DNA from: Candidatus Woesearchaeota archaeon CG10_big_fil_rev_8_21_14_0_10_37_12
GTDB taxonomy: Archaea; Nanobdellota; Nanobdellia; Woesearchaeales; ARS49
Assembly (NCBI GenBank): GCA_002762795.1
Contig: PCYA01000012.1
Location: 54,066 to 118,065 of the forward strand
Direction of reading: 5' to 3'
Length of the DNA stretch: 64,000 nucleotides
Part shown: positions 25,726 to 62,130 of the stretch, piece after piece
Layout of the letters: each line of letters begins with the position of its first letter
How positions within the stretch are numbered: the first letter of the stretch is position 1
Translations under genes and position numbers: made by a program
The notes under the pieces: model-generated
The model's input: only the letters and a program-made list of their open reading frames with translations
Database searches by the model: none
Told to the model about the DNA's origin: nothing

Positions 25726-25917
25726 CCTTTCTGACCCTGACTTGTGTTCTTTTTATTCAAGCAGCCATTTCCAAACAGGCTTAATAATGATCTTTTTACC
25801 TTCAACAATCTCTTCACCTTCCTCGTTATATGTTAGAAAAAAACTTCGTTTGATTTGACAAGTTTCTATTTGTAATGGGAATTATTGGCCTAAAATTCCT
25901 ATTCCGAATGGAGATTT

Positions 25918-26325: not shown

Positions 26326-26415
26326 ATGCTCATTTCAAATTTATTCTATTTAACCCTTTCTGAACCAAAACTTAATAAAAACACTCAACTAAACAACCAG
26401 TAAAGAGGTGAACAC

Positions 26416-26673: not shown

Positions 26674-26674
26674 T

Positions 26675-27532
26675 ATGCAAAACTGGCTATTACTGGGACT
26701 CATCGGATACTTATTTTATGCCATCTCAACAACTATTGACAAATACATTCTCAAACACAAATTTGGATTTGTTCGCATGGAAGCATTCAAAATGTTTTTT
26801 GACGGAATGGTGTTGCTCATTATTGGCATCATCTTTTTTGATCTTTCACTTAACAAAGAATTATTGTACTGGACAATACCCTTAGGAGCAGTTAACGCAG
26901 GAGCAGGACTCTTCTATTACAAAGCATTACAACAAAGAGACTCAGAAGAAATAACACCAGCACACAGATCAGGATCAATACTCTTGGTCTTTCTTGCATC
27001 CATACTATTCTTATCAGAAACAATACATCCTGCCAACTATCTTGGACTAATACTCTTGCTTGCCGGAATTTATGTAATTCGTTCAAAAGACGGATTTCAC
27101 TTTCCACCTATAGACAAAGTGTTTGTTCTTGTCATGCTTGTTGTATTTTTTGACGTTATTTATGCACTAACTGCAAAACAAGCACTCGCAACAATACAAC
27201 CAATAAACCTTGCAATACTCATGTACTTCATGACAGCACTCACAGTTATTATTTACGACACACTGAACAAAAAACACAGACTGAACCACTTTTACCACTT
27301 CAGAAAAAACATCAAACTAACATCATTCTCAGCACTATTTGCAGCAACAGGAACGCTCCTCATATACACTGCTCTAACATACGGAAACGCATCACAAGTA
27401 TTCCCACTAGCTGCAGCAGAACCAGCAGTTCTATTCATTTTTGCAACAATTTTTCTAAAAGAACAATTCTCATGGCACAGACTATTAGGAACACTTTTTG
27501 TACTTGCAGGCATTATTTTTGTAGCTATATGA
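26675..27532 (+). CDS. EamA/DMT-family transporter
   Basis: About 10 TM segments in a two-repeat organisation. The ATG at 26675 lies 1 nt after the upstream stop. Confidence 0.65.
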   Translation: MQNWLLLGLIGYLFYAISTTIDKYILKHKFGFVRMEAFKMFFDGMVLLIIGIIFFDLSLNKELLYWTIPLGAVNAGAGLFYYKALQQRDSEEITPAHRSGSILLVFLASILFLSETIHPANYLGLILLLAGIYVIRSKDGFHFPPIDKVFVLVMLVVFFDVIYALTAKQALATIQPINLAILMYFMTALTVIIYDTLNKKHRLNHFYHFRKNIKLTSFSALFAATGTLLIYTALTYGNASQVFPLAAAEPAVLFIFATIFLKEQFSWHRLLGTLFVLAGIIFVAI

Positions 27533-27578
27533 CTCCCAAAACATAAAGTAATTAAATACCATTCAAATAACAAACAAT

Positions 27579-27896
27579 ATGATTCTAACAACAACGCCGG
27601 ATTTGCCTGGAAAGAAAATCAAAGAAGTACTAGGATTAGTCAAAGGCAACACTGTCCGCGCAAAACACATTGGCAGAGACATACTTGCAGGACTAAAACA
27701 ACTCGTCGGCGGAGAAATTAAAAGTTACACAGACATGATTACTGAAGCACGCGAAGAAGCACTCAAACGCATGGAACAAGACGCAAAGAAAAAAGGCGCA
27801 AATGCAGTTGTGAACGTTCGCTTTGTCACAGCAGAAGTCATGCCAGGAGCAGCCGAAGTACTAGCGTATGGGACTGCGGTTAAATTAGGAAAATGA
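27579..27896 (+). CDS. YbjQ/UPF0145-family protein
   Basis: TTTPDLPGKKIKEVLGLVKGNTVRAKHIGRDILAGLKQLVGGEI...GANAVVNVRF is highly typical of the family. Confidence 0.8.
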   Translation: MILTTTPDLPGKKIKEVLGLVKGNTVRAKHIGRDILAGLKQLVGGEIKSYTDMITEAREEALKRMEQDAKKKGANAVVNVRFVTAEVMPGAAEVLAYGTAVKLGK

Positions 27897-28646
27897 TCAT
27901 GGCTTTGCAATCTTCCAAGTAGCATAAAAATAATTCCTGAAATTATCCGCAACGTCTTTTGACTGGATTAAAATACCAATTGGTTTATCACTCCAAGAAA
28001 TGATTAGGACTTTGTCGTTAAGAATATCAATATTTCCTGGAACTGGATAATTTACATACCTCTCATCAACCCAAGAAGGATAGTTTTTTGTCATCTCAGC
28101 ACCTTTATGTTCTCTATTTGCAATCCCTAACGCTTTAATTTCGATCTTGCTCATCCACGTCCATGTTTTTCCATAAAAAATAGTTGCTGGTTCAATGTAT
28201 TTTGGGCTGCTCATGTAAAAATAAAGATCAATATCTTCTTTTTTTGCATCTTTCAATAATATCTTGTACGCGGTTGTAATGCCTTTCATACCAACAAAAA
28301 CTTCAGCATCTAATTTGCTGCCAGTCAAAGCCTTAATGTTTTCCAACGAAGGCAAAATATTCGTAAGAGCTTTTTTACTTCTCTCGATTTCCTCTTCCTT
28401 CTTATCAAGAAATTCTTGTAATCTTGATGGTTCGACAGCCTGAAAAATCTTGGTTTTTTCTCTTGTAATAAAACTCACAAGACCCTTCTCAGTTAACCTT
28501 TGCAACACTTCATAAATATTAGAATATGCAATTCCAGACTTTTTAACAATAGGACCAACTTTTGACGCACCAATAACAATTAATGCTTCATAAACTTTCG
28601 CTTCTCCGTCAGTTAAACCAAATTGCTGCAATTCTCTTTCAAACAT
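27897..28646 (-). CDS. TrmB-family transcriptional regulator
   Basis: FGLTDGEAKVYEALIVIGASKVGPIVKKSGIAYSNIYEVLQRLTEKGLV. Confidence 0.75.
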   Translation of the reverse strand: MFERELQQFGLTDGEAKVYEALIVIGASKVGPIVKKSGIAYSNIYEVLQRLTEKGLVSFITREKTKIFQAVEPSRLQEFLDKKEEEIERSKKALTNILPSLENIKALTGSKLDAEVFVGMKGITTAYKILLKDAKKEDIDLYFYMSSPKYIEPATIFYGKTWTWMSKIEIKALGIANREHKGAEMTKNYPSWVDERYVNYPVPGNIDILNDKVLIISWSDKPIGILIQSKDVADNFRNYFYATWKIAKP

Positions 28647-28741
28647 GCTTTTGATTTGCTTATTTTCTATAAAAATCTTGTGTTATATACCCTGTACAAG
28701 GGTGATGAATTATAAAAATTAGTTGTTACTTTTTGGTAGCA

Positions 28742-29812
28742 ATGAAACAAATAATTGTTGCTACGAGCATTTTGCTCTTACTACTTTCCTGCACGATAAC
28801 AGGGCAGACAACGCTAGAAACAGAAAATATCCCAATCGGAGGACTTTTTTCCTTAACAGGCGACGGTGCAAGCTGGGGAGGTGATGAACTCAAAGCAGTG
28901 CAGCTTGTTATAGATGAAACAAATGAAGAAGGAGGAATAGATAGAAAACAAATTGATTTTGTATTTGAAGATGCAAAAACAACATCACGAGATGCAGTTA
29001 CAGCATATAATGCACTAAAAAGCAAAGCGGATGTTACTGTTGTTATTGGCAGCACATGGGAACAAACAACAGAACCAATAGCACCACTTGCAGAACAAGA
29101 TCAAATAGTCCTAATATCGCCAAGCATATCTGGAGTTATTGAAGATGACAAGAATTATAACTACTTGTTTACAACATGGTACTCAGAACTTTCTGGAACT
29201 AAACGCGTTTTGCAAGAAATGAACAAACAAAACATTGGACGCGCAGTCATAATTCACAATACAGGCATCTGGCCAACATTTGTGAGCAATTTATTTGAAA
29301 AACACTCGGAAGAATACAACATAGAAGTGTTACAAGCAAAAGAAATGAAACCAGATGCAATATACACAGGCTTCTCACTAGATGAATACTTACAGTCATT
29401 CATGAAACAAGCACAAGAGTTAGGATTAACTGTCCCAATATACAGTGCATCTGCGACAGAAAACGAACTTTTGCTTGAATGGTATGGACAATACAAATAT
29501 GGAGTCTATCATCCAGTGCCAAAAATAACTGAAAGACATACAGAGTTTATTGCAAAATACAAAGCCAAATACGGAGAAGAACCAACAAGCCCATCAGCAG
29601 CACCAGCATACGACGCAGCAAAACTTGTTATTGCAGCACTCAAAGACGGAGCACGAACAGGAGAAGAAATAAAAAATTGGCTGGATAACGTACAAGACTT
29701 CCCCGGAACCGTAGTGGAAAAAATAACATTTGACGAAAAAGGACTACTGGATGTAGGAACAGACGCATTTGTCATCAGAACAGTCAAAAACAGAACATTC
29801 AAAGACATATAG
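28742..29812 (+). CDS. ABC substrate-binding lipoprotein, LivK/PBP1-like (paralog 4)
   Basis: MKQIIVATSILLLLLSC lipobox. TATA-like AATTATAAAAATT is centred ~27 nt upstream of the ATG at 28742. IPIGGLFSLTGDGASWG block present. Confidence 0.75.
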   Translation: MKQIIVATSILLLLLSCTITGQTTLETENIPIGGLFSLTGDGASWGGDELKAVQLVIDETNEEGGIDRKQIDFVFEDAKTTSRDAVTAYNALKSKADVTVVIGSTWEQTTEPIAPLAEQDQIVLISPSISGVIEDDKNYNYLFTTWYSELSGTKRVLQEMNKQNIGRAVIIHNTGIWPTFVSNLFEKHSEEYNIEVLQAKEMKPDAIYTGFSLDEYLQSFMKQAQELGLTVPIYSASATENELLLEWYGQYKYGVYHPVPKITERHTEFIAKYKAKYGEEPTSPSAAPAYDAAKLVIAALKDGARTGEEIKNWLDNVQDFPGTVVEKITFDEKGLLDVGTDAFVIRTVKNRTFKDI

Positions 29813-46143: not shown

Positions 46144-46152
46144 TTTATATAT
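46144..46152 (+). promoter_or_regulatory. TATA-like box positioned for a leaderless transcript starting at the cysS leader mini-ORF
   Basis: TTTATATAT is centred ~26 nt upstream of the ATG at 46174. Confidence 0.5.
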
Positions 46153-46173
46153 TTCAGGCATACTTTAATTTTT

Positions 46174-46215
46174 ATGCAAACACAAACTAAAAACGTAAAA
46201 TGTTGTTGTTGCTAG
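46174..46215 (+). CDS. candidate leader peptide MQTQTKNVKCCCC upstream of cysS
   Basis: ATG CAA ACA CAA ACT AAA AAC GTA AAA TGT TGT TGT TGC TAG: four consecutive Cys codons directly before the stop, 75 nt upstream of the cysS ATG. Confidence 0.65.
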   Translation: MQTQTKNVKCCCC

Positions 46216-46242
46216 TTCTTAGACCATACATAAAATTCACTG

Positions 46243-46253
46243 TTTTTCTTTTT
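46243..46253 (+). terminator. T5-C-T5 tract between the leader mini-ORF and cysS (candidate regulated terminator)
   Basis: TTTTTCTTTTT. Oligo-T is the archaeal intrinsic termination signal. Confidence 0.4.
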
Positions 46254-46290
46254 GCCAAGATTAATAAACACATAATGAGGTACGAGTAAC

Positions 46291-47733
46291 ATGCCACTAA
46301 AAATATACAACACACTAACAAGAAAAAAAGAAACATTCAAACCTGTTAACGACGAGCTTGTGAGAATGTACACTTGCGGACCAACAGTTTACAACTATGC
46401 ACACATAGGGAATTTCAGAACTTACCTCTTTGAAGACTTGCTCAGAAGATGGCTAAAGTACAAGGGATACAAAGTAAAACAAGTGATGAACCTTACAGAC
46501 GTAGATGACAAAACAATCAGAGACAGCCAAAAAGAAGGAAAAACTCTCAAAGAATTCACAGAATTCTACTCTCAGGCGTTCTTTGAAGATGTTGATGCAT
46601 TAAACATTGAACGAGCAGAAGAATACCCCAAAGCAACAGAACACATCAATGAAATGATAACAATGATCAAACTACTCCTCCAAAAAGAACTTGCGTACAA
46701 AACAGAAGACGGAATTTATTTCTCAATAAATAAATTTAAAACATACGGAGAACTTGCGCACGTAGATACAACACAACTCAAAGCAGGTGCATCAGGGAGA
46801 ATACGCGCAGATGAATACGAAAAAGACAACGTAGCAGATTTTGTATTATGGAAGTTCTGGGACGAAAACGACGGAGCTGTCTTTTGGGAAATGGAATTAG
46901 GAAAAGGAAGACCAGGATGGCACATTGAATGTTCAGCAATGAGCGCAAAACATCTAACAAAAGCATTTCAAAACTCGACATTTTACCCTGACAAATTTGA
47001 AACAATAGACGTACACACAGGAGGAGTAGACAACCTGTTCCCCCACCATCAAGACGAAGTAGCACAAACAGAAGGAATAGTAAACAAACAATTCTCAAAA
47101 TACTGGATGCACTCAGAACATTTATTGGTTGATGGCAAAAAAATGGCAAAATCAACAGGAAACTTCTATACACTCAGAGACCTTGCAACCAAAGGACACA
47201 ACCCAATAGCCATACGATATCTATTGCTATCTGCACATTACAGACAAAAACTCAACTTTACCTTTGAAAGCCTCGAAGCTGCAGCAACAGCAGTCCAAAG
47301 AATAAACGATTTCGTTCTACGATTAGAAGAAGCAACTGGAAATAAAGATCACAAAGAAATAACAAGAATAATTAACCGTGCACAAAAAGAATTTGAAAAA
47401 GCATTAGATGATGATCTTGAAATAAGCAGAGCACTCGCAGCAGTGTTTGAGCTTATGAATGAAATAAACAAATTTCTGCAAGATACATCATTAAGCCAAA
47501 AAGATGCAAAACAAGTTATCGCATTTATGAAAACTGCTGATTCAATACTAGGAATATTGACACAACAAGAACAACTAACACCAGAAATACAAAAATTAAT
47601 AGATGAACGAGAACGCGCCAGACAAATCAAAAATTGGTCACGTGCTGATGAAATACGAGACGAATTAGCACAAAAAGGAATAGCAGTAGAGGATACACCA
47701 CATGGACAACGCTGGAAAAAAATTCTTTCTTAA
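46291..47733 (+). CDS. cysS: cysteinyl-tRNA synthetase
   Basis: CGPTVYNYAHIGNFRT (HIGH region) and KMAKSTGN (KMSKS). GAGGT lies 9 nt upstream. Confidence 0.95.
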   Translation: MPLKIYNTLTRKKETFKPVNDELVRMYTCGPTVYNYAHIGNFRTYLFEDLLRRWLKYKGYKVKQVMNLTDVDDKTIRDSQKEGKTLKEFTEFYSQAFFEDVDALNIERAEEYPKATEHINEMITMIKLLLQKELAYKTEDGIYFSINKFKTYGELAHVDTTQLKAGASGRIRADEYEKDNVADFVLWKFWDENDGAVFWEMELGKGRPGWHIECSAMSAKHLTKAFQNSTFYPDKFETIDVHTGGVDNLFPHHQDEVAQTEGIVNKQFSKYWMHSEHLLVDGKKMAKSTGNFYTLRDLATKGHNPIAIRYLLLSAHYRQKLNFTFESLEAAATAVQRINDFVLRLEEATGNKDHKEITRIINRAQKEFEKALDDDLEISRALAAVFELMNEINKFLQDTSLSQKDAKQVIAFMKTADSILGILTQQEQLTPEIQKLIDERERARQIKNWSRADEIRDELAQKGIAVEDTPHGQRWKKILS

Positions 47734-49062: not shown

Positions 49063-50088
49063 TTATTTTTTCTCTGATTTAAGTTGATTGTAAATTCCAT
49101 CACTAAACTGTTTCCAATAATGAACTTTATCCTGAACCAATAAATCATAATGAACAATATACGGACCAATATCTTTTTTGAACAACTCTATGCTATCATT
49201 TAATTCTTTTGGATTGCGTGCATTAAGATAAAGCAACAAATCGTAATTTCCTAACGTGTTCCCTGCATAAAAAATATTTCTGAGTTGTTGAAAAGGTTTT
49301 TTTCTAATGTTTAAAGGAGTATCTTGAATTAACCTGACAAGAATATAGTATGTTACAAATCCAAGCTCAGAAAGATTTGGAATACCTCCAAAACTTAATA
49401 TTATTTTATTTTTAATAAGATTATTGATTTTTCTTTTAACTGTTTGTCTATCTATTTTTAACATTTTAGACATACTAATCAGAGATTCATTTGGATTGTC
49501 TGCTAGCACTTTAAGAATTTCAACTTCATAACTTGTTGGAGAATATATATTAAATTCTCTATCAACAGGAAATTTTCGCGTAGTAAGCATACTACTGAAT
49601 GAATGGTCGGATTTTTTCTCGAATTTAGTTCCTAAATCCAAAACTGGATTAAGCTGAGTAAATTCAAAATCTGAGATGTGCGTGAGCATAATGTAATCTT
49701 TTACTTTATTATTACATAATACAAACAACTCTTGACGTATTTTATCCAAATGAAAACTATTAGTTGCATCAACAATTATTTGAATGTCAAAACGACCTAT
49801 GAACGTGTTTATCCACATTACAAACTCGTGTTTTCTTAAGAGATCATAGATTTTTTCTTTGTTATCAAGACCTTCTTCAAATTGTAATAACAAATGATAT
49901 CTTGTGAAACCTAGCTTTCTAGCATCAATAAAAAGAACATATTGGCTTAGAACATCTGCTTTTTCTAACTGTTTTATTTTATACGCAACGGTATCTTTTG
50001 AAACATTAAGAGCTTTTGCTAAAGTTGTATGGGCTATTCTGCAATTCTGCGCCAACACCTCCATTATTTGCAAGTCCCTTTTATCCAT
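49063..50088 (-). CDS. tandem-duplicated Lrp/AsnC-type regulator (two HTH plus two ligand-domain repeats)
   Basis: The first repeat is DLQIMEVLAQNCRIAHTTLAKALNVSKDTVAYKIKQL and the second is EVEILKVLADNPNESLISMSKMLKIDRQTVKRKINNL. TATA-like TTTATATAG lies ~27 nt upstream of the ATG at 50088. Confidence 0.7.
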   Translation of the reverse strand: MDKRDLQIMEVLAQNCRIAHTTLAKALNVSKDTVAYKIKQLEKADVLSQYVLFIDARKLGFTRYHLLLQFEEGLDNKEKIYDLLRKHEFVMWINTFIGRFDIQIIVDATNSFHLDKIRQELFVLCNNKVKDYIMLTHISDFEFTQLNPVLDLGTKFEKKSDHSFSSMLTTRKFPVDREFNIYSPTSYEVEILKVLADNPNESLISMSKMLKIDRQTVKRKINNLIKNKIILSFGGIPNLSELGFVTYYILVRLIQDTPLNIRKKPFQQLRNIFYAGNTLGNYDLLLYLNARNPKELNDSIELFKKDIGPYIVHYDLLVQDKVHYWKQFSDGIYNQLKSEKK

Positions 50089-50193
50089 ATTTCGCATAAT
50101 GTTGTTTTTACTATATAAATATGCTACTTTTTTCTTATTTTGTATTGAATTATTTATTATATTGTTTTATCTTTATTTTTCTTAGTGATAACA

Positions 50194-50859
50194 ATGAAAA
50201 TACAAGCGACGCAAGGAGAACTATTTGACAACAGCAAAAAACTACAAAAAAACAGTGGAGCAGCGATAATATGGATGAGTGTTGGAAACAGTTACTTCAA
50301 AAGAGAAACCATTACTCAACTTATTAAATTTGCTTCAACCAACTTTTCAAAAGTATTTGTATTAATGCCTGACAAACCAGCTGTACACACATACAAAGCA
50401 ATAGGCTATTCACAAAATAAAGCAGAGAAAAAAGCCAGATTAACTGGCAATAACCTAAAAAATCACGCTCTGCACGCTATTCAAACTACAAAAACAAATA
50501 ACACGTACATTATTGATTGGCAAACTGAGATATCGACAAAAAATATTTATCAACAGGAATTGAAAAAAATTCATGATTTATATGAAACAAATGCTTTATT
50601 CAGACAAAAAGTTCGTAGAACAACTTGTGAAGTACTCGAAGGAAAACTAAAACCTGACGTAACTTTAACTGCTGCTATTAATGAAGGAACACACTATTTG
50701 CTTAGCGAAATAGCTTTTCTTTCAGCAAGCCCAAAAATATTAAAAATAAACAGCACAATTTACATATATCACAAAAAATGGGAAATCTATGAACAATTCA
50801 TTAAAGGAACTTTCACAGGATTGCCAAGAAATAATTTAGGATTTTTAGTTGTTAAATAA
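50194..50859 (+). CDS. tRNA-dependent cyclodipeptide synthase (CDPS), NYH-type
   Basis: IIWMSVGNSYF compares with GISxGNSYF around the catalytic Ser. KAEKKAR is present, HYLLSEIAFL matches the Y..E pair and IYIYHKKW matches the YH pair. Size ~220 aa. All recalled from AlbC/YvmC/Rv2275. Confidence 0.8.
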   Translation: MKIQATQGELFDNSKKLQKNSGAAIIWMSVGNSYFKRETITQLIKFASTNFSKVFVLMPDKPAVHTYKAIGYSQNKAEKKARLTGNNLKNHALHAIQTTKTNNTYIIDWQTEISTKNIYQQELKKIHDLYETNALFRQKVRRTTCEVLEGKLKPDVTLTAAINEGTHYLLSEIAFLSASPKILKINSTIYIYHKKWEIYEQFIKGTFTGLPRNNLGFLVVK

Positions 50860-50886: not shown

Positions 50887-51585
50887 TTACTCAGCTAGTG
50901 CTGCATCAATAACCTGCTTAAATGCTGCGAACGGTTGCGCACCAGACACTAAACGGCCGTTGATAATAAAGCCAGGAGTTCCCTGAACACCAGCAGCACT
51001 ACCATCAGCCATATCCTTTTGCACTTCATCAGCAAACTGGTCAGAATCAAGACAACTGTTAAAATCAGCGGTTTTCAAACCAAGATCTTTTGCGAACTTT
51101 TTGAACGAATCAACACCGCCAGCTACACCTGTTTCAAACAGTTTATCATGCATTTCCCAGTATTTGCCCTGTTCACCAGCACACTCAGCAGCCTCAGCAG
51201 CTTTTTGCGCTTGCGGATGGAAAGGCAAAGGATAATCTCTGTACACCAACTTTAACTTGCCGGTTTCAATGTATTCTGACTCGATTTGCGGCAATGTTTG
51301 CTCAAAAAATCGCGTACAGAACGGACATTCAAAGTCGCTAAACTCAACCATCGTTACAGGTGCATCTTCATTGCCTTTTACTGCATCATCATCAACAAGA
51401 GCAGCCATATCAATATCAGCAGGTTCTGGTACACTAGGAGCAGACGGTGTAGGTGTTGGCTGCGAAGGAGCAGCAACAGGAGCACCAAGCTTATCACTAA
51501 TAACGGTTAACTGCACAACAAGCACAATCAACAAAACTGTTTGCAGCCCAAGAAGCCACAATTTAACATCATTACTTTTTTTCAT
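50887..51585 (-). CDS. DsbA-like thioredoxin-fold oxidoreductase, membrane-anchored
   Basis: FECPFC active site, an N-terminal TM and a Pro/Ala/Ser linker. GGAGGGTGA lies 5 nt upstream of the ATG at 51585. Confidence 0.8.
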   Translation of the reverse strand: MKKSNDVKLWLLGLQTVLLIVLVVQLTVISDKLGAPVAAPSQPTPTPSAPSVPEPADIDMAALVDDDAVKGNEDAPVTMVEFSDFECPFCTRFFEQTLPQIESEYIETGKLKLVYRDYPLPFHPQAQKAAEAAECAGEQGKYWEMHDKLFETGVAGGVDSFKKFAKDLGLKTADFNSCLDSDQFADEVQKDMADGSAAGVQGTPGFIINGRLVSGAQPFAAFKQVIDAALAE

Positions 51586-51700
51586 ATATTCACCCTCCAA
51601 TACACCCAAAAAACAGTATTCTCCTTTTAAAAGATTTATGTACTGTAAAGGCAGGAAAGTCCAGTTCCAATAACTTTTTTTTTCTCGATGGATTATTAAT

Positions 51701-51790: not shown

Positions 51791-51895
51791 CAGATGATTT
51801 GCGCTTTGATGTTGTTCGAACCATATGTTTTGTTGTCTCCCTTGAGTGATTTAGAAAGGAAAGAGTTATATAAGTCCTATTTAATCTTAAACGCT

Positions 51896-53296
51896 ATGAG
51901 CAAAGAATCACCGCTTGATGGATTAGTTGCAGATTTCTTACCAGAAAATGTTGGAACGTGGGCTTACAAGCGACCTGACGGAGCTACTTTACCATACGCA
52001 AAAGCAGTTCATTATTCACGAGGACAAGAAGGAAGTTCATTAACTCCAGAACAGCTTGATGAGAGAAATAACAGAGCTGCAAGAAGCGCACAAATAATTG
52101 GTGATGAGCAACTGTTACGCGCTAATGGACTATCAGTAGGACTTGCTGCAAAACTTGAAAGTGCAGATAAGGGACATACTCATCTTACATTCAAACCACC
52201 AGTGCCAATGGATGATGCACTCAGCGGAGAACAACCACCAATAACAGGACAATACCCATACGTAACATTTCCTGCACAAGGAGAAGTTCCATACGCAATT
52301 GTAGTAATGTATGAAGAAGGCGAACAATTTGGAACAGCACAAGAAATAGCAACAATAGAACTTGATAAAGACACTTGGTATTTGAGTGCGTCCCAACTAC
52401 CTGAAGACACAAAACACAAAAAAGAAATCGAACAAGCAGTAAACATATTCAGAGAACGAGGCGATAGGTGTTTACACCCCGGAACATATAAACTCAACAT
52501 TACTGTAGAAAGATCACCAGCAATAGCAATACGCATAGACGGGTACAGACCACTAACAGCACAACTATTATACGACGGACCAATAAGACAAGAAATACCA
52601 ATCGGGGGTTTACACGAAATTATCAGCAGCAGTATTGCTAAATATGTTTCAGGTATTAAAATTCCAAACGAAATGAGCCCACTCGAACAAAAACCACCAA
52701 AACAACAAACAGAAACTCCAAAACCAGAAAAAAAATTAAGACCAAAATATGCAGAAATGTCACTTGTATTGCCCAGCGATGAACCAAACAAGCCATTCGG
52801 AATGTCACAAGCAACACTTGAATATCAAGGAAGAGAAGACAGAGCAGACTTAATATACGTAGCAACAAGACGCACAGACTCAGTCGGAGAAACTGATGCA
52901 AACCCTAATTTTGGATTAGTAGAAGTACAAATAAGCCAATTTTCCAAAGTAACAAACGTAGATATTGATTACAAACCAAAAAAAATAGAAGAGCCAGAAC
53001 CACGAGAAACTACAGGTACTCCGTTAACGGGTAGCTTTTCAAGCGACAGGCCAAGATCATTTCCTTTGATGGGAGGAGGTTCTTATTCAGGTGGAAACTC
53101 TTATTTAGGCGGAGGAGGATATAGCGGTCTTCGTTCAGCTGGAGGTATTTCAGGGAATATGGGCACAAGAGGCGAAGATTTTGGAGGGGGATTTGATTGG
53201 GATAGTTTAGGCAGTCCATCAACATCACCACCATTAGTATCAACAGGCAGAACAAAACTTGGAACACCAAGAACAGGAAGTGTTTCACAAAAGTAA
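51896..53296 (+). CDS. hypothetical protein (no recognisable domain) with a Gly/Ser/Tyr-rich C-terminal tail
   Basis: Start moved to MSKESPLDG because TATA-like GTTATATAAG (51864-51873) lies ~27 nt upstream. No TM segment. The tail reads GGGSYSGGNSYLGGGGYSGLRSAGG. Confidence 0.55.
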   Translation: MSKESPLDGLVADFLPENVGTWAYKRPDGATLPYAKAVHYSRGQEGSSLTPEQLDERNNRAARSAQIIGDEQLLRANGLSVGLAAKLESADKGHTHLTFKPPVPMDDALSGEQPPITGQYPYVTFPAQGEVPYAIVVMYEEGEQFGTAQEIATIELDKDTWYLSASQLPEDTKHKKEIEQAVNIFRERGDRCLHPGTYKLNITVERSPAIAIRIDGYRPLTAQLLYDGPIRQEIPIGGLHEIISSSIAKYVSGIKIPNEMSPLEQKPPKQQTETPKPEKKLRPKYAEMSLVLPSDEPNKPFGMSQATLEYQGREDRADLIYVATRRTDSVGETDANPNFGLVEVQISQFSKVTNVDIDYKPKKIEEPEPRETTGTPLTGSFSSDRPRSFPLMGGGSYSGGNSYLGGGGYSGLRSAGGISGNMGTRGEDFGGGFDWDSLGSPSTSPPLVSTGRTKLGTPRTGSVSQK

Positions 53297-53415
53297 AAGG
53301 AACACTTGAAGCACACCTCGCAACATTCAGATTCTGTCTCACAAACGAAACAACCTAATTCCACAAACTTTTTTCTTGAGAAAAACTTAAATACTTGTAC
53401 AAAATTCCAAGCAAT

Positions 53416-53466
53416 ATGATATCACAACAACAAACAAAATCAACAGCGGTTGTTGTAGTGGTATAA
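53416..53466 (+). CDS. candidate leader peptide MISQQQTKSTAVVVVV upstream of valS
   Basis: ATG ATA TCA CAA CAA CAA ACA AAA TCA ACA GCG GTT GTT GTA GTG GTA TAA: five consecutive Val codons directly before the stop. TATA-like CTTAAATAC lies ~26 nt upstream. Confidence 0.65.
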   Translation: MISQQQTKSTAVVVVV

Positions 53467-53494
53467 GTACGCTCCTTTATTCAGGAGAACGTAC
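53467..53494 (+). promoter_or_regulatory. hairpin starting at the first nucleotide after the leader stop codon
   Basis: GTACG-CTCCT (53467-53476), loop TTATTC, then AGGAG-AA-CGTAC (53483-53494). Confidence 0.45.
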
Positions 53495-53535
53495 ACATCA
53501 ATTCTTCTGAAATACAGGAACTAACTGAGGATATT

Positions 53536-56028
53536 ATGACAGAAAAATATAACCCACACGAAGCAGAAATTAAATGGATGAACTACTGGGAAAAACAAAA
53601 CACATACAAATTTGATCCAAAAAGCAACAAGCCAGTTTACGCAATAGACACACCACCACCAACAGTATCAGGCAAAATGCACGTTGGACATTCATTCAGC
53701 TACTCACGTACAGACTTCATTGCACGATTCCACAGAATGATCGGCAAAAACGTATTCTATCCATTCGGAACAGATGACAATGGCTTAGCAACAGAAAGAC
53801 TCGTAGAAAAACTCAAAGGCGTAAACAGCAAAAAAATGAAAAGAGAAGAATTCGTAAAACTCGTACTCGAAACACTCAAAGAAATCACACCAGAATTTAT
53901 CAGCGATTGGAAACGCATAGGCGTTTGTGCAGATTATTCAATTTATTACTCTACTATTGATAATCACTGCCAAAAACTAAGCCAACTAAGCTTTATAGAT
54001 CTATACAAAAAAGGCAGAGCATACCGCGCAGAAAAACCAATCATCTTTTGCCCAAACTGCAAAACAGTCATCGCACAAGTAGAAATGGAAGACAAAGAAC
54101 TCCAAAGCACACTCAACTACATCAAAGCAAAACTCGAAGACGGCAGATACATCATCTTTGCAACAACAAGACCAGAACTCATGCCGGGCAATATTGGGTA
54201 TAGCATAGACGAGAAAGGCAAATATGTTGATGTAAAAAAAGAAAATGAAACATGGATTATTGCAGCAGACGCATACGAAAAATTCAAAGACGAATGGCAA
54301 TTGGAACAACCAAGCAAACCATACCTAGGCAAAGAATTAATTGGCAAAAAAGTAACAACACCAATCATTAACAAAACATTCACAATAACACACGACCAAA
54401 GCGTAAAAACAAACTACGGAACAGGAATAGTATACTTTTGCAGCTACGGAGGACTAGACTGCGTAGAATGGTTAACAAGACACAAAGAAGCAGAACCCAT
54501 ACACATCATGGGATTAGACGGAGTATACAATGAAAAATGCGGCGAATACCAAGGAATGAACACGCAAGAAGCACGATCAGCAATACTTGAAGACCTTGAA
54601 CAACTCAGAGTACTTATCAAAAAAGAAAAAATCAATCATACAGTAAACGTACACGAACGATGTGGAATAGAAATAGAATACATCAGCACAGCACAATGGT
54701 TCATCAAAATACTTGACCTAAAAGATGATTTGCTGAAACGAGGAAATGAACTAAACTGGCATCCAGAACACATGAAAAACAGATACGACAACTGGACAAA
54801 AGGACTACACTGGGACTGGTGCATCAGCAGACAAAGACACTACGGAATACCAATACCAGTATGGTATCACAAAAAAACAGGAGAAGTACTCATAGCAGAC
54901 GAACAAAGCATACCAATAGACCCAACAACACACAAACCACCAAAACACCTAACAGAAAACCCAGATGATTACATCGGAGAAAAAGATGTATTGGATACGT
55001 GGGCAACAAGCAGCTTAACACCACAAATCGCTATTGAACTCATTAATGATGAACACATGAAGAAAAAATTATTCCCAATGGATGTACGACCACAAGCACA
55101 CGACATCATAACATTCTGGCTATTCAACACAGTAATCAAATCACACTTGCACTACAACAAACTACCATGGAAAGACACAATCATATCAGGCTGGGTATTA
55201 GACCCAAAAGGCAGAAAAATGAGCAAAAGCAAAGGCAACATTATCGACCCAAGAGAACAAATACAAAAATACTCAGCAGATGCACTTCGCTATGCCGCAG
55301 CAAACAGCAAATTAGGACAAGACAACCCCTACAAAGAACAAGAACTCACAGCAGGAATAAAATTAACTACCAAGTTATCGAATGCAAGCAAATTTGTGTT
55401 TATGAATTTAGAAGGATACGACTTCACAGGTAAAACAATAGATGTACTAGACAAATGGATTTTAACAAAGCTTGCAAAAACAATCCACGAAACAACAATA
55501 GCATTTGAAAACTACGATTACAGCAAAGCGCGCGCATTGGCAGATGAATTTTTCTGGCACGACTTCTGCGATTATTATTTAGAACTCGTTAAAGGAAGAA
55601 TCTATGAAGGCAATGCCGAGCATAAATCAAGCGCACAAGAAACACTCTACCACTGCATGTATGCTATTCTACGATTATACGCTCCAATCATACCATTCAT
55701 CACAGAAGAACTCTATCACAAACACTTCAAAACACAAGAACAAACTGATAGTATTCATTTAACCAGTTGGCCAACACAACCTGAAATACATGAAGACGCA
55801 GAAAAAATAGGAGATACTATAGTAACAATACTCGCAGACATACGCAAAAGAAAAACAGCAGCACAAAAAGGAATGAACGCACCAATCAAAAAACTAACCA
55901 TTGAAAGCAAACTTGACTTAAGTCTGGCATTGGATGACTTGAAAGCAGCAACTTGTGCAGAAACAATTGAAATAGGAAAAGCACAAGAAGAAATTAATGA
56001 AGGATTGAAGATTAGTGTTGAATTCTGA
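53536..56028 (+). CDS. valS: valyl-tRNA synthetase
   Basis: PPPTVSGKMHVGH (HIGH region) and KMSKSKGN. 830 aa. GAGGA lies 4 nt upstream. Confidence 0.95.
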   Translation: MTEKYNPHEAEIKWMNYWEKQNTYKFDPKSNKPVYAIDTPPPTVSGKMHVGHSFSYSRTDFIARFHRMIGKNVFYPFGTDDNGLATERLVEKLKGVNSKKMKREEFVKLVLETLKEITPEFISDWKRIGVCADYSIYYSTIDNHCQKLSQLSFIDLYKKGRAYRAEKPIIFCPNCKTVIAQVEMEDKELQSTLNYIKAKLEDGRYIIFATTRPELMPGNIGYSIDEKGKYVDVKKENETWIIAADAYEKFKDEWQLEQPSKPYLGKELIGKKVTTPIINKTFTITHDQSVKTNYGTGIVYFCSYGGLDCVEWLTRHKEAEPIHIMGLDGVYNEKCGEYQGMNTQEARSAILEDLEQLRVLIKKEKINHTVNVHERCGIEIEYISTAQWFIKILDLKDDLLKRGNELNWHPEHMKNRYDNWTKGLHWDWCISRQRHYGIPIPVWYHKKTGEVLIADEQSIPIDPTTHKPPKHLTENPDDYIGEKDVLDTWATSSLTPQIAIELINDEHMKKKLFPMDVRPQAHDIITFWLFNTVIKSHLHYNKLPWKDTIISGWVLDPKGRKMSKSKGNIIDPREQIQKYSADALRYAAANSKLGQDNPYKEQELTAGIKLTTKLSNASKFVFMNLEGYDFTGKTIDVLDKWILTKLAKTIHETTIAFENYDYSKARALADEFFWHDFCDYYLELVKGRIYEGNAEHKSSAQETLYHCMYAILRLYAPIIPFITEELYHKHFKTQEQTDSIHLTSWPTQPEIHEDAEKIGDTIVTILADIRKRKTAAQKGMNAPIKKLTIESKLDLSLALDDLKAATCAETIEIGKAQEEINEGLKISVEF

Positions 56029-58971: not shown

Positions 58972-59718
58972 TTACTTCTCATGACCGCCCAAATAAATTT
59001 TCTTAATCTTATCACTTTTCAAAATTTCTCTGCCGCCGTGCATTGCAACACGACCTTCTTCCAACACATAAATTTTATCCGCAAACTCACACGCAGCTTT
59101 TGCATTTTGCTCAACCATTAAAATAGCAGTGCCTTCATCACGAATCTCTTTTACTTTCTCAAACACTTCCTGCATTGTTTTTGGAGCCAAACCAAGAGAC
59201 GGTTCATCTAACAATAAAAGCTGAGGGTCTTGCATTAACCCTCTGCCCATTGCCAACATTTGCTGCTGGCCACCAGACAAAGAATATGCATTATCATATA
59301 ATTTTTTTCTTAACACAGGAAAATGACCAAGCACTTCATCCATTCTAGTGTTGATTAATTCTTTTTCTTTAGTCATAAAAGCGCCCATCTCAAGATTTTC
59401 TTTAACAGTTAAACCAGAAAATACTTGCCTGCCTTGCGGAACAATTGCAATACCCATCTTAATCCGGTCATGCGTTGGCAATTTTGTAATATCTTTGCCT
59501 TTGTACATAACTTTGCCTTTATACACATCACACAAATTAAACATTGACTTCAAGATGGTACTTTTTCCTGCACCATTTGGACCAATAATCAGCGTAATAT
59601 CACTCGGATTAATATCCATGTCAACACCAAACAAAATTTGCAACTTACCATAACCAGACTCAACACTACGAAGCTGCAAAAATTTACTAGTGTCCTTCAC
59701 TGATTTTTTCTTTGCCAT
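58972..59718 (-). CDS. livF: branched-chain amino acid ABC transporter ATP-binding protein LivF
   Basis: GPNGAGKST, LSGGQQQML and LLLLDEPS. Last gene in the canonical livHMGF order. Confidence 0.85.
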   Translation of the reverse strand: MAKKKSVKDTSKFLQLRSVESGYGKLQILFGVDMDINPSDITLIIGPNGAGKSTILKSMFNLCDVYKGKVMYKGKDITKLPTHDRIKMGIAIVPQGRQVFSGLTVKENLEMGAFMTKEKELINTRMDEVLGHFPVLRKKLYDNAYSLSGGQQQMLAMGRGLMQDPQLLLLDEPSLGLAPKTMQEVFEKVKEIRDEGTAILMVEQNAKAACEFADKIYVLEEGRVAMHGGREILKSDKIKKIYLGGHEK

Positions 59719-59719
59719 T

Positions 59720-60403
59720 TTACTTACCCAAATATGCCTCTAACACGCGCTTATCTTTTTGAACTTGCTTCGGAGTGCCCCTCATCAAAACTCTGCCTTC
59801 AGCCATAACAATAACTTCATCACTAATACTCATCACAAAATCCATATCGTGCTCAATAAACATAATTGTTTTTCCTTCTTTGTTTAACTGCTTTAAAATC
59901 TTCTTCAACTCTTGACGAACACTAGGATTCACACCTGCAGTTGGCTCGTCAAGCATTAACAACTCATGCGGGTGAAGCAAAGCTCTTGCAATTTCCAACA
60001 ACCGCATCTGACCATAACTCAACGCACTCCCTTTTGTATCAATTGGTAATTTAAATGCAACCTTCTCTAACACATCCCTGATTTCTTTTTCTGAACAAGG
60101 ACGAGAAATCGTCAAATTTTCTTTAACTGTCAAATTTTTGAATAACCTCGCTTGCTGAAACGTCCTACTAATTCCAACACGCGCAATCTTGTGCGTTGGA
60201 AGCCGAGTTATGTTTTCTTTTTTGAAATAAACAGAACCATCATCAGCACTAATAATATTACAAACTAAATTAAACATAGTTGTTTTCCCCGCACCATTTG
60301 GGCCAATAACACTTGTGATCTTACCTGGCTTAATATCAAAGGAACAATCCTTTACAGCATACACGCCACCAAAATGCTTTGCAAGATTCTTAACGCGTAT
60401 CAT
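59720..60403 (-). CDS. livG: branched-chain amino acid ABC transporter ATP-binding protein LivG
   Basis: GPNGAGKTT, LSYGQMRLL and LLMLDEPT. Confidence 0.85.
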   Translation of the reverse strand: MIRVKNLAKHFGGVYAVKDCSFDIKPGKITSVIGPNGAGKTTMFNLVCNIISADDGSVYFKKENITRLPTHKIARVGISRTFQQARLFKNLTVKENLTISRPCSEKEIRDVLEKVAFKLPIDTKGSALSYGQMRLLEIARALLHPHELLMLDEPTAGVNPSVRQELKKILKQLNKEGKTIMFIEHDMDFVMSISDEVIVMAEGRVLMRGTPKQVQKDKRVLEAYLGK

Positions 60404-61257
60404 GAAAAATCCACCTTCCCAAACAAACCTTTCGGCCTGTAAATTAATATGAGCAATAAGATCAGTGCAAAAATCATTTCCCGCATCGGACCAAGCACAG
60501 AACTTGGGAACCCAATAAATCTGAGGGGTTCAGGAATTAAGAACAAAACAATCGTACCAATAGCAGAACCTTTCACAGACGCAAGACCACCAACAATCAA
60601 CATACTAAACATCAAAATCAAATCATTAATGCCAAAAATAGATGGATCAATAAACGTAATGTAATGCGCAAACAAACCACCAGCAAAACCAGCAAACAAC
60701 GCAGAAAAACCCAACATCAACGCCTTATGTGCGAACGTATTCTTGCCAAGCATTTTCGCAGCAAGCTCATCATCACGAATTGCTTCACAAGTTAACCCAA
60801 ACCGCGATCTGGAGATGTACCACATCGCTAAATAGCTTACCACTGCAAGGACCACAACAACAAACAAAAACTCAGTGTTTCCTTTCACAATCTTAGGAAT
60901 GCCTGGAATGCCTAACGCGCCTCTTGTCACATCAGTCCAATTTCGCGCAACACTGCCGAGAATAAAAGTAAATCCTAATGTGGCTAAAGCGAGATAGTCA
61001 CCTTTTAATCGTGTTGTAGGCATTGCAAGAATAATGCCCATTACCATTGCAGCCAACGCTCCAAGAGGAATGCTAATCCATAACGAAACACCCTGCACAG
61101 CTAACAACGCACTCACATATGCACCAATACCAAAAAATCCAACATGACCAAGATTCAACAAGCCAGTGAAACCCACTGCGAGATTCAATGAAAAGGTTAC
61201 AATACTATAAATTCCTATGAGAATTGCCAAATGAATCACATAATTAATGAACGCCAT
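60400..61257 (-). CDS. livM: branched-chain amino acid ABC permease LivM
   Basis: GLLNLGHVGFFGIGAY is the typical LivM block. 4-nt overlap with livG. Confidence 0.85.
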   Translation of the reverse strand: MAFINYVIHLAILIGIYSIVTFSLNLAVGFTGLLNLGHVGFFGIGAYVSALLAVQGVSLWISIPLGALAAMVMGIILAMPTTRLKGDYLALATLGFTFILGSVARNWTDVTRGALGIPGIPKIVKGNTEFLFVVVVLAVVSYLAMWYISRSRFGLTCEAIRDDELAAKMLGKNTFAHKALMLGFSALFAGFAGGLFAHYITFIDPSIFGINDLILMFSMLIVGGLASVKGSAIGTIVLFLIPEPLRFIGFPSSVLGPMREMIFALILLLILIYRPKGLFGKVDFS

Positions 61258-62130
61258 TTATGCCTCCCTCACTTTCTTACCAAGCAAACCAGACGGTTTG
61301 AACAACAGGAAAATGAATAATAGTACAAATGCAATCGCATCTTTATAACCAGAAGGCAACCACCAAATACCAATGTTTTCTACTAAACCAAGAATAAACG
61401 AGCCCAATACTGCACCTGGAATACTTGCCAAGCTCCCAATAACTGCACCAGTAAATCCTTTGATTACTAATGAAACACCCATTTGAGGATAGAGATTCTG
61501 CTCGATACCTATTAACACGCCCGCAACACCTGCAAGAAAACTTCCAATAATAAACGTGTACGTGTAAATCTTCTCAGGATTAATGCCAACAGTCTGCGCA
61601 ACTTCTTTATTATCAGCAACAGCACGCATAGCCTTGCCAAGCTTTGTACACTTCATCAACCACCACAAAGCAAGCAAAAGCAAAATTGATACTACAATGA
61701 TAATAACCTGAATAAACGTAACTCTCGCACCAAGCGCATCAAACACAGGATTCACAGTAGGAACAGTCTTAACATCAGCACCCCAAATAGCAAGCACAGC
61801 AGCATTAATAAAAGTCATCAAAGCAATACTTGCAATCAACAACACTGCACTCGAAGCTTTAATCTTTCTCAACGGCTTGTACACAACCCAATTCATCACA
61901 GCACCAAACAAACTTGTCACCATAATAGCTAATACTACAGCAAGCCAAAAGTTAAGCCCAGCCATCACTGCAAAAGTATAAAGCAAATACGCACCTGTAG
62001 CAAGCACAGCACCATGCGCAAAATGCATAAACTTCGTCACACCATAAATTAACGAAAAGCCAGACGCAACTAACGCATAAATCGCCCCTGCAATAATCCC
62101 ATTCAAAATCAGTTGTGTTGCAATACTCAT
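61258..62130 (-). CDS. livH: branched-chain amino acid ABC permease LivH
   Basis: QLILNGIIAGAIYALVASGFSLIYGVTKFMHFAHG is the typical LivH N-terminus. Confidence 0.85.
   Translation of the reverse strand: MSIATQLILNGIIAGAIYALVASGFSLIYGVTKFMHFAHGAVLATGAYLLYTFAVMAGLNFWLAVVLAIMVTSLFGAVMNWVVYKPLRKIKASSAVLLIASIALMTFINAAVLAIWGADVKTVPTVNPVFDALGARVTFIQVIIIVVSILLLLALWWLMKCTKLGKAMRAVADNKEVAQTVGINPEKIYTYTFIIGSFLAGVAGVLIGIEQNLYPQMGVSLVIKGFTGAVIGSLASIPGAVLGSFILGLVENIGIWWLPSGYKDAIAFVLLFIFLLFKPSGLLGKKVREA

Follow-up and report, generated by a model that had tools for sequence, protein, structure and literature searches.

The stretch of DNA analysed here, 64,000 nt in length and referred to as the window, comes from a DPANN archaeon (Woesearchaeota) and contains, upstream of cysS, the gene for cysteinyl-tRNA synthetase, a mini open reading frame (mini-ORF) of 13 codons, MQTQTKNVKCCCC, that ends in four Cys codons directly followed by the stop (ATG CAA ACA CAA ACT AAA AAC GTA AAA TGT TGT TGT TGC TAG). 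The end of this stop codon and the ATG of cysS are separated by a spacer of 75 nt, and the 480-residue product of cysS was identified as CysRS by Pfam (PF01406, 1e-99, plus PF23493 and PF09190). Among named proteins, those of Woesearchaeota are the best matches to the CysRS, ValRS and GlyRS of this genome. A preliminary description of the window, made from its letters, had proposed that the mini-ORF senses the charging of Cys-tRNA by way of the ribosome and thereby tunes read-through or translation of cysS. When its claims were examined on the sequence, the coordinates, codons and spacing were all correct, and both the T5-C-T5 tract in the spacer and the Shine-Dalgarno (SD) sequence of cysS were present as described, the latter (GAGGT, 46277-46281) being part of TGAGGT, the form that an SD usually takes in the window. 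The positions of the features are collected in Table 1.

An 8-mer that matches the TATA consensus of the window perfectly, TTTATATA, is located 22 nt 5' of the mini-ORF ATG. TATA-like 8-mers were found 19-25 nt before the ATG in 21 of the 72 window genes, with a mode of 22 nt, and an SD-like motif in 18/72; cysS was the only gene among the 72 that combined a TATA-like 8-mer at the spacing of leaderless genes with an SD. The context of the mini-ORF start, with a pyrimidine at -1 and an A at +1, is that expected for a transcription start. The suggestion that the mini-ORF comes first on the cysS transcript is in keeping with the TATA spacing, but this transcript need not be the sole route to cysS given that a second TATA-like 8-mer has been retained at 46261-46268. 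Cys makes up 0.97% and Val 5.9% of the residues across the 72 window ORFs, and the rarity of Cys and the mixed use of TGT and TGC on which the preliminary description had relied were thus borne out: Cys occupies 4/13 codons of the mini-ORF, with both codons present, and Val 5/16 codons of a corresponding mini-ORF at valS.

The gene valS is the only other aminoacyl-tRNA synthetase (aaRS) gene in the window, as had been stated; no further one was found among the window ORFs of at least 300 amino acids, nor any in the flanking extensions of the window (L161 and L162). It is preceded by the mini-ORF MISQQQTKSTAVVVVV, which ends in a run of Val codons, and CTTAAATA lies 22 nt 5' of the ATG of this mini-ORF. 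Both aaRS genes in the window (2/2) consequently have a TATA-spaced mini-ORF that ends in a run of cognate codons plus stop. GTT, GTA and GTG are typically decoded by different isoacceptors, and given that the valS run mixes all three codons, the factor shared by them is valine together with ValRS. A mini-ORF with a terminal Val run was unique to the valS leader in about 2.2 Mb examined, and no Gly run was present before the GlyRS gene of one syntenic relative (L164). The N-termini of the Cys and Val leaders are alike and A/C-rich (QTQTK and QQQTK) and are followed by GTTGTTGT in different frames, which suggests that one of the two may be derived from the other by duplication and frame change. 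Homology of the two leaders at the DNA level was also considered, but the alignment showed compositional similarity only and was not decisive.

These mini-ORFs stand out from the background. Among 1299 ATG mini-ORFs of 5-40 codons on both strands of the window, four end in at least four identical residues; two of these are the cysS and valS leaders and the other two are LLLL runs antisense within genes. When 2.13 Mb of fetched loci were examined together with the window, 59 mini-ORFs with a terminal run of at least four were obtained, and only seven of them, the cysS and valS leaders included, were located at most 200 nt upstream of a long ORF. Six intergenic mini-ORFs of the window have a TATA-like 8-mer at leaderless spacing, and the cysS and valS leaders are the top two TATA matches. 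Among 692 TATA-spaced mini-ORFs (1.36 Mb of loci with a GC content of at most 50%), all those with a terminal Cys run of at least three, or with CCW, were located at Cys loci. A chance origin of the mini-ORFs is excluded. The remaining matches of the run scan were SD-led small Lys-rich proteins.

Leader ORFs of the same build were found at Cys-related genes and tRNA-Cys genes of other DPANN lineages, and the cognate-codon pattern holds at the Cys genes of six of them. A first upstream scan (at most 400 nt, at least three TGY codons) gave few matches, and relaxed scans, in which a terminal run of at least three (one further codon allowed) had to be accompanied by either an SD or a TATA at leaderless spacing, showed these to be real elements. 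A contig search with a CysRS alignment, in which the relatives among the matches listed were at most 56% identical, was the source of loci L003, L016 and L040. Among the leader-bearing distant loci, and between them and the window, the identity of the CysRS proteins is 51-66%. In L098 and L040 the leader precedes a cysteine synthase gene that is followed by cysS, and both synthases exceed the NCBIfam cysKM cut-off; in L003 one leader precedes a gene resembling serine acetyltransferase (cysE) and another, on the opposite strand, precedes a tRNA-Cys identified by ARAGORN and Rfam; and in L016, L091 and the L172/173/174 group tRNA-Cys genes likewise follow a leader. The CysRS of this last group is 75% identical to that of L091, and in L172 about 900 nt separate the mini-ORF from cysS, which starts 10 nt past tRNA-Cys. 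Loci that have no leader are available for comparison too, with a leaderless cysS or, in L094, with a tRNA-Cys that begins about 25 nt after its TATA. The P0111 and P0115 loci had no element or no usable upstream region, and Rfam gave only tRNA matches on the loci. The elements belong to a family of DPANN leader ORFs, unannotated until now and patchy in its distribution, that is linked to Cys decoding and biosynthesis and in this genome extends to Val and valS.

The tRNA-Cys genes next to cysS contain introns at differing, partly non-canonical positions, and most of them were missed by ARAGORN with default settings and by Rfam. In L172 the ORF of a LAGLIDADG endonuclease sits between the leader ORF and tRNA-Cys. 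Two further small ORFs, of 24 and 22 amino acids, are conserved between L091 and L172, both upstream of the poly-Cys leader; the longer one is TATA-spaced and ends in C-L-x-C plus stop, and the shorter one is SD-led.

The leader peptides (8-19 residues) have N-terminal parts that are unrelated between lineages, and in their coding parts the nine Cys leaders have only the terminal Cys run and its stop in common. In the distant lineages the runs are CCC, CCCW, CCW or CCCY. Between run and stop there is 0-1 codon, the order of TGT and TGC varies, and a single nucleotide change would turn the final W or Y into Cys. Because the N-termini are unrelated, the synonymous Cys codons vary and the Val run uses GTT, GTA and GTG, selection acts on the codons and not on the peptide. 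This supports the earlier claim that the run was selected at the amino-acid level, since synonymous Cys codons vary while run and stop persist.

The best conserved segment follows the stop. Between L091 and L172 it is identical at 20/20 nt (TAAAGAATTCTCATTGTTAG) while the preceding codons have changed, and the window and element b of L016 have in common the post-stop string TGTTGTTGTT(G/A)CTAGTTCTT(TT)AGAC(C/T)AT. The motif TTCTY is present at most 9 nt from the stop in 8/9 Cys leaders, an extended version of it, TTCTY-N0-2-CATT[GT], occurs at a background rate of 0.058 per kb, and a pyrimidine run of at least five occurs within 12 nt of the stop in 9/10 leaders, including that of valS (CTCCTTT). 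Given that run, stop and post-stop motif have been kept while the N-termini diverged, the pattern has the signature of a regulatory leader ORF. A tract of at least four T ends +31 to +49 past the stop in 6/7 leaders linked to protein genes (+32 and +38 at cysS of the window). Six of the ten leader ORFs stop with TAG, as compared with 18% for long ORFs of these loci (p about 0.003, a value that is affected by the fact that not all ten leaders are independent). TAG is the rarest stop in the window (5/59 long ORFs), and its preference possibly reflects a selected termination context.

To place the window leaders in an evolutionary context, we compared the locus with syntenic relatives obtained by a metagenome scan and exact-protein look-ups (L081/L170, L082, L163, L164 and L165; P0002 is the same contig as L081), whose CysRS proteins are 70-74% identical to that of the window. 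The gene order ABC, ABC-2, cysS, rsmB-like, PUA ... valS, RFC is common to the four relatives with enough flank; L081/L170 was too short for this comparison. In the relatives cysS is preceded by a GC-rich hairpin and then by a promoter (e.g. TTCTCGCAAACTATATAAAC) about 21-22 nt 5' of the ATG. The intergenic region 5' of cysS is about 90 nt longer in the window, where the ancestral promoter is still recognisable (TTTTTGCCAAGATTAATAAAC, 21 nt, ATG) and the SD TGAGGT lies between this promoter and the ATG. The T5-C-T5 tract overlaps the position of an ancestral sequence resembling a TFB recognition element (BRE). No mini-ORF and no SD precedes valS in the syntenic loci and in eight further ValRS loci (47-50% identity), and the best ValRS homologues (57-58% identity) likewise had no valS mini-ORF, run or SD; valS of the window carries TGAGGA. 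SD and mini-ORF thus co-occur: both aaRS genes of the window are SD-led, and the leaderless orthologues that have no mini-ORF have no SD. The mini-ORFs are insertions specific to this lineage, and with them the aaRS genes went over to SD-dependent initiation; such a gain of SDs is expected if cysS and valS are now internal cistrons of a leadered transcript.

The ValRS of the window (830 amino acids) is about 47% identical to that of L082 (797 amino acids), the sole syntenic relative compared; the ValRS proteins of the other syntenic relatives have 795-796 amino acids. Given the higher identity to ValRS of other Woesearchaeota lineages (57-58%) and the 70-74% found for CysRS, valS, and perhaps its leader too, may have been replaced or separately acquired.

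On the evidence of recurrence at Cys loci and of the conserved run, stop and post-stop motif, the mini-ORF is very likely a cis-regulatory leader ORF that senses the cognate aminoacyl-tRNA (Cys-tRNA(Cys), and Val-tRNA(Val) at valS), which lends support to the sensor that had been proposed. In its broad outline, a short predicted 5' ORF enriched in cognate codons, it resembles a ribosome-mediated attenuator. As to the output, we tentatively favour the shielding of a termination or cleavage site, and a leader ORF sensor combined with this mechanism is, on balance, a reasonably probable explanation of the whole. Transcription would start about 22 nt past the TATA box, at or beside the AUG at 46174, and translation would be leaderless. 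The four terminal Cys codons would gauge the supply of Cys-tRNA(Cys): with ample supply the ribosome would arrive at TAG and depart, and with short supply a ribosome stalled on the final codons would cover the first 10-15 nt past the stop (46216 onward). A ribosome with its A site on the final codons or on the stop would cover roughly 12-15 nt beyond, and it is there that the conserved post-stop sequence lies. When exposed, this stretch would serve recognition or entry in a process that cuts the growing transcript short a few tens of nt downstream, either oligo-U termination or cleavage by FttA/aCPSF1, which binds U-rich RNA, with RNA polymerase at the T5-C-T5 tract, which is a plausible terminator. 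Shielded by the stalled ribosome, it would allow transcription into SD-led cysS and hence more CysRS when charged tRNA(Cys) is scarce. The valS leader would be a Val-coded copy of the same device.

The sign of this regulation, in which stalling would lead to more expression, follows from homeostatic logic and bacterial precedents. Control at the transcript level is favoured because the motif is also found ahead of tRNA-Cys genes, where there is no translation initiation region (TIR), because cysS of L172 lies so far downstream behind tRNA-Cys, and because no significant RNA structure was detected at cysS and pairing between post-stop sequence and TIR was ordinary (see below). Shielding is favoured because archaeal termination needs no hairpin and because the T tracts at +31 to +49 resemble the geometry of FttA pre-termination, in which U-rich RNA is bound -30 to -36 from the RNA 3' end (PMC11616081; see also PMC8716108). 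With RNA polymerase at the T tract, the U/C-rich post-stop stretch would be about 30-36 nt behind the RNA 3' end.

Several observations weigh against this interpretation. Upstream of cysS no mini-ORF, Cys run or SD was present in any of the five nearest relatives, and because the five closest relatives are without the element the leader appears to be dispensable and patchily distributed; the expectation that orthologous cysS genes would have a conserved mini-ORF and Cys run thus failed in the nearest relatives and held in more distant DPANN lineages. No Val-run leader was found at ten other ValRS loci, best homologues included, and the count of two out of two aaRS genes is for the window, with a third aaRS of the genome (GlyRS, P0360, PIN75356.1) located outside it. 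The L003 leader on the minus strand has no post-stop pyrimidine run, and the valS spacer has no tract of four or more T. The +31 to +49 range was picked after looking and T4 tracts are common in AT-rich spacers; similarly, the geometric likeness to FttA was noticed after the fact and any involvement of FttA is pure conjecture. The retained TATA-like 8-mer at cysS would permit expression independent of the leader, and the T5-C-T5 tract may in part be a promoter relic.

The main rival to shielding is unmasking of the translation start, in which transcription is constitutive, the post-stop RNA or the Cys tract pairs with the SD/AUG of cysS and a stalled ribosome releases it. We regard this as rather unlikely, even though it has an experimental precedent in mycobacteria (10.1101/834739) and a strong SD lies 53-75 nt past the stop at five other protein-linked leaders and at both window genes. 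A weak pairing of GUUCUU..ACC (46216-46226) with GGU..GAG.UAAC (46279-46290) was predicted at cysS, and in simulations with a ribosome on the last Cys codon or the stop the unpaired probability of the SD rose from 0.18 to 0.37-0.39. However, the cysS leader was less structured than shuffled sequences (minimum free energy -13.7 vs -17.7 kcal/mol, z = +1.33), and the longer-transcript fold paired the Cys tract with an early cysS coding stretch and not with the SD. There were no classical attenuator hairpins and no GC stem ahead of the T5-C-T5 tract, in agreement with the preliminary description, which had found no convincing alternative hairpins. The valS leader does have alternative hairpins (z = -2.97, no U run) with competing 1:2 and 2:3 pairings that emerge upon masking of the 5' arm, yet the accessibility of its TIR hardly altered under ribosome masking (0.62 to 0.65), and the simulations for valS gave an ambiguous picture. 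The post-stop stretch of L098 has 12 bp of complementarity to the cysK start (-9.3 kcal/mol, top 6% of controls), but a specific anti-TIR role of the post-stop motif found no support, since duplex energies were ordinary in 9/10 cases when compared with 600 control TIRs, and the motif also precedes tRNA-Cys genes that have no TIR to unmask.

The remaining alternatives account for less of the data. A basal cysS transcript that is independent of the leader and starts from the retained TTAATAAA is possible, and if the mini-ORF transcript always ended at the T5-C-T5 tract, which lies just 5' of this TATA-like 8-mer, the two would be separate transcription units linked by interference, by occlusion or not at all. 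The exact ancestral 22-nt spacing and the similar flanks fit such an arrangement, but it is improbable given that cysS and valS have gained an SD, which would be absent from a leaderless transcript, that no other window gene pairs such a TATA with an SD, that the equivalent site at valS (CTGAAATA) is a poor TATA, and that the downstream genes in L098, L040, L016 (element b) and L003 (minus strand) are SD-led and have no TATA at leaderless spacing. Another possibility, specific to the window, is a starvation-induced -1 frameshift, in which the Lys-tRNA on AAA (46198-46200) would slip to A-AA (46197-46199) while awaiting Cys-tRNA; the ribosome would enter a 29-codon frame (46200-46289), coupling leader translation to cysS initiation and keeping the spacer covered. 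GTA AAA TGT permits perfect -1 re-pairing and the frame, open for 29 codons, stops 1 nt before the cysS ATG (TAA-C-ATG), for which the chance was roughly estimated to be about 1-2%. This frame was noticed post hoc, however, neither valS nor any other Cys leader examined has an equivalent slippery site or open frame, in L098 the -1 frame ends well short of cysK, and the tRNA-linked leaders would be left unexplained, all of which makes it very improbable. We attach equally little weight to the view that there is no translated sensor, and that the elements are a nucleic-acid feature (the GTTGTTGT string, a simple repeat or the valS hairpin CAACAAC/GUUGUUG) or encode functional Cys- or Val-rich micropeptides. 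The valS mini-ORF does fold on itself, and GTTGTTGT, though shared by the two leaders, is not rare (11 copies observed in the window vs 7 expected). Nevertheless, synonymous codons vary across lineages (TGT/TGC order; GTT/GTA/GTG), the frame always yields the amino acid that matches the gene next to it, the run is always placed against the stop and the start is always 22-23 nt from the TATA box, a shared protein function is unlikely for 8-19-residue peptides with unrelated N-termini, and no Rfam family, T-box included, reached its gathering score anywhere in the window.

Several bacterial systems are comparable. In the trpL, hisL, pheL and pheM-pheST attenuators of E. coli a short leader ORF with a run of regulatory codons acts through a hairpin-dependent intrinsic terminator, pheM-pheST being the textbook case of an aaRS operon. 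As in these attenuators the position of the ribosome would set the fate of the downstream transcript, but they need mutually exclusive hairpins, of which cysS has none, and to our knowledge archaeal RNA polymerase makes no use of hairpin terminators. In tnaC-tnaA of E. coli the Rho entry site beside the stop is covered by a ribosome that has come to a halt where the leader ORF ends; the DPANN leaders similarly have a sensor at the end of the leader ORF and a conserved post-stop sequence, with a ribosome proposed to block a termination factor, but tnaC senses free tryptophan through its nascent peptide and its factor is Rho, whereas here FttA/aCPSF1 or oligo-U is only conjectured. T-box riboswitches, which we know only from bacteria, have a similar physiological job, turning aaRS genes on when the cognate tRNA is uncharged, but they do so by direct tRNA-RNA binding in a large structured leader with no ribosome involved, and they gave no Rfam match in the window.

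Mycobacteria have polycysteine leaderless small ORFs (the 'Cys ribulon') that act by translational attenuation via pairing of the Cys tract with the SD (Canestrari et al. 2020, bioRxiv 10.1101/834739). A leaderless small ORF with at least two consecutive Cys codons before a Cys-related operon is what is also predicted at cysS here and at cysK/M or cysE in relatives; in both groups it is the (here predicted) leaderless first cistron, with 2 to at least 4 consecutive Cys codons and SD-led downstream genes, several Cys-related loci are affected per organism or clade, and the peptide is poorly conserved. The DPANN leaders differ in being archaeal, in that the run stands directly at the stop with a conserved motif rich in pyrimidines after it, and in that the Cys tract is not predicted to pair with the SD and the post-stop stretch pairs no better with its TIR than with control TIRs; moreover, the mycobacterial targets are genes of Cys metabolism and not cysS or tRNA-Cys (neither cysS nor 'tRNA synthetase' occurs in 10.1101/834739). 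In Deinococcus deserti leaderless leader peptides precede aaRS genes, with a 10-residue peptide containing two Cys at cysS (de Groot et al. 2014, PMC4007540). There too a short cognate-rich peptide is encoded at the transcript 5' end (with mapped starts, which are predicted here), an SD-led aaRS gene comes next and several aaRS and biosynthesis genes per genome are affected, but the organism is bacterial, terminator/antiterminator hairpins are predicted and the Cys codons are only two and away from the stop. The uORFC-8-2 motif 5' of cysS in Rhodobacterales contains a tandem-Cys upstream ORF and is interpreted as ribosome-mediated attenuation (Breaker lab 2021, PMC8632094). This motif is confined to alpha-proteobacteria and is a structured RNA that comprises an intrinsic terminator, made up of a stem and a U run, as well as two stems, with Cys codons 14-15 within a stem; the window leader has no comparable structure and no Rfam match.

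The principle is thus known in bacteria, and the DPANN elements differ in the archaeal domain, the lack of hairpins, the position of the run strictly at the stop, the post-stop motif and the tRNA-Cys targets. A full-text search revealed, within the literature searched, no archaeal attenuation by a leader ORF and no leader ORF before a tRNA gene. It is conceivable, though doubtful, that DPANN archaea have a hairpin-free kind of attenuation in which a ribosome stalled at the end of a leaderless mini-ORF protects the U/C-rich post-stop site from termination or cleavage, and that this device is modular, was recoded from Cys to Val in this genome and controls aaRS genes, biosynthesis genes and tRNA-Cys, such that a tRNA would set its own transcription by way of the translation of codons that it decodes in its own 5' leader. 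If the sensor reading is true, the leaders are a concrete archaeal case of signalling from ribosome to polymerase or from ribosome to mRNA, and a first hint of how aaRS genes, and perhaps tRNA genes too, are regulated by tRNA charging in archaea. As a natural substrate, they would lend themselves to the study of the interplay of transcription-translation coupling and FttA-type termination, and they would indicate that DPANN cells with reduced genomes can build regulation out of hardly more than a promoter, some codons and a brief motif after the stop. With regard to annotation, ORFs of 8-27 codons of this kind are never called by gene finders.

Table 1. Positions and layout of the leader ORFs, their associated genes and neighbouring features.
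Locus	Feature	Position	Strand	Basis or remark
Window	TATA box TTTATATA of cysS leader promoter	46144-46151	+	Consensus match, modal 22-nt spacing
Window	Predicted leaderless 13-codon leader ORF MQTQTKNVKCCCC, stop	46174-46215	+	Start context; analogues at other DPANN loci
Window	Putative sensor, Cys codons TGT TGT TGT TGC abutting TAG (46213-46215)	46201-46212	+	Terminal Cys run and stop conserved
Window	Pyrimidine-rich post-stop stretch TTCTTAGACCATAC	46216-46229	+	Near-identical to TAGTTCTTTTAGACTAT of L016 element b
Window	T5-C-T5 tract, candidate pause/termination site, 28-38 nt past stop	46243-46253	+	Putative function
Window	TATA-like TTAATAAA, relic or second promoter, 22 nt before cysS ATG	46261-46268	+	Spacing and flanks match L081, L082, L163-L165
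Window	SD TGAGGT of cysS	46276-46281	+	Not in leaderless cysS of relatives free of mini-ORF
Window	cysS, cysteinyl-tRNA synthetase, putative regulated gene	46291-47733	+	Pfam
Window	TATA box CTTAAATA of valS leader	53386-53393	+	22 nt before ATG at 53416
Window	Predicted leaderless leader ORF MISQQQTKSTAVVVVV, stop	53416-53466	+	Val run 53449-53463 (GTT GTT GTA GTG GTA)
Window	Post-stop hairpin GTACGCTCCT..AGGAGAACGTAC with pyrimidine run CTCCTTT; alternative pairing CAGGAGAA/TTCTTCTG	53467-53494	+	Leader fold z = -2.97
Window	SD-like TGAGGA of valS	53526-53531	+	Not in leaderless valS of relatives
Window	valS	53536-56028		
L098	TATA, 22 nt, MLKAVCCC, stop, 71 nt, SD, cysteine synthase (cysK/M), cysS			Leader stop TAG at 9035-9037
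L040	TATA, 22 nt, MLAKQSCCC, stop, 53 nt, SD, cysteine synthase (cysK/M), cysS			
L003 (Woesearchaeota UBA9638)	TATA, 23 nt, MSKMLSAVREYCFCCRCCC, stop, 65 nt, SD, serine acetyltransferase-like gene (cysE)		-	
L003	TATA, 23 nt, MKTSSPCCCW, stop, 37 nt, tRNA-Cys, cysS		+	ARAGORN, Rfam
L003	TAG leader stops	3308-3310; 3084-3086		
L016 (Nanoarchaeia), element a	TATA, 23 nt, MIRQDYYRCSCCC, stop, 25 nt, intron-containing tRNA-Cys			
L016, element b	SD-led MEKTRKNEIKYLDNVSQVVASSGCCCY (..GCCCY), stop, 53 nt, ORF163, cysS			
L016	TAG leader stops	7791-7793; 8082-8084		
L016	tRNA-Cys with intron	7819-7940		Intron of 47 nt after position 38
L091	TATA, 22 nt, MIDAICCC, stop, 22 nt, intron-containing tRNA-Cys, cysS			
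L091	tRNA-Cys with intron	8970-9072		Intron in D-arm
L172/173/174	TATA, 22 nt, MINIFCCW, stop, LAGLIDADG ORF, tRNA-Cys, cysS			
L172	tRNA-Cys with intron	3889-3990		Intron in anticodon stem
L094	tRNA-Cys with intron	about 9800-9905		
L091	24-residue ORF MVSQYKMFKMFSILTSHTAKCLTC	8693-8767		TATA-spaced
L172	24-residue ORF MANKYMFKVFCILTSHTTTTCLKC	2815-2889		TATA-spaced
L091	22-residue ORF MSFLENIQIIDLDDREDEFRDK	8813-8881		SD-led
L172	22-residue ORF MSLLDELKIIDLDDREDEFRDK	about 2930-3000		SD-led
L161	Phe-run mini-ORF MAAITKIQTTICHDKSPFFFI, stop	131-196	+	TATA-spaced
L087	Mini-ORF almost entirely Lys/Arg	1225-1260		SD-led
L102	Mini-ORF almost entirely Lys/Arg	1863-1913		SD-led
L105	Mini-ORF almost entirely Lys/Arg	2562-2591		SD-led
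L110	Mini-ORF almost entirely Lys/Arg	1731-1766		SD-led
L115	Mini-ORF almost entirely Lys/Arg	2956-3036		SD-led
Window	HTH (helix-turn-helix) regulator	49063-50097	-	
Window	tRNA-dependent cyclodipeptide synthase	50185-50859	+	Pfam CDPS 4.7e-38; NCBIfam TIGR04539 9e-43
Window	DsbA-like thioredoxin	50887-51609	-	
Window	500-residue protein without family	51794-53296		
Window	Liv-type periplasmic binding protein genes, four paralogues	20913-29812 and 58972-62130		Peripla_BP_6

The run scans also gave mini-ORFs of other kinds. The SD-led mini-ORFs that consist nearly wholly of Lys and Arg (e.g. MAAKKKKKK and MAKKKKKRVVRRKKRRVVKKKKKRRR) are more like tiny basic ribosomal proteins (L41e-like) than like leaders. 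Another TATA-spaced mini-ORF, with a Phe run close to its end, lies in the same genome about 8.2 kb to the left of the window (L161 in Table 1); it is antisense to annotated genes with no obvious target downstream and is probably spurious.

Between cysS and valS there is a block of four genes, missing in the syntenic relatives, that includes a tRNA-dependent cyclodipeptide synthase. This enzyme uses up aminoacyl-tRNAs and is an interesting neighbour for two putative charging-sensor leaders. The window also contains the four Liv-type binding protein genes, and a branched-chain amino-acid ABC (ATP-binding cassette) transporter operon was identified from gene calls on the identical copy L162. These genes fit amino-acid scavenging, where sensing of tRNA charging would matter. 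RadA, RPA and RFC are also encoded in the window.

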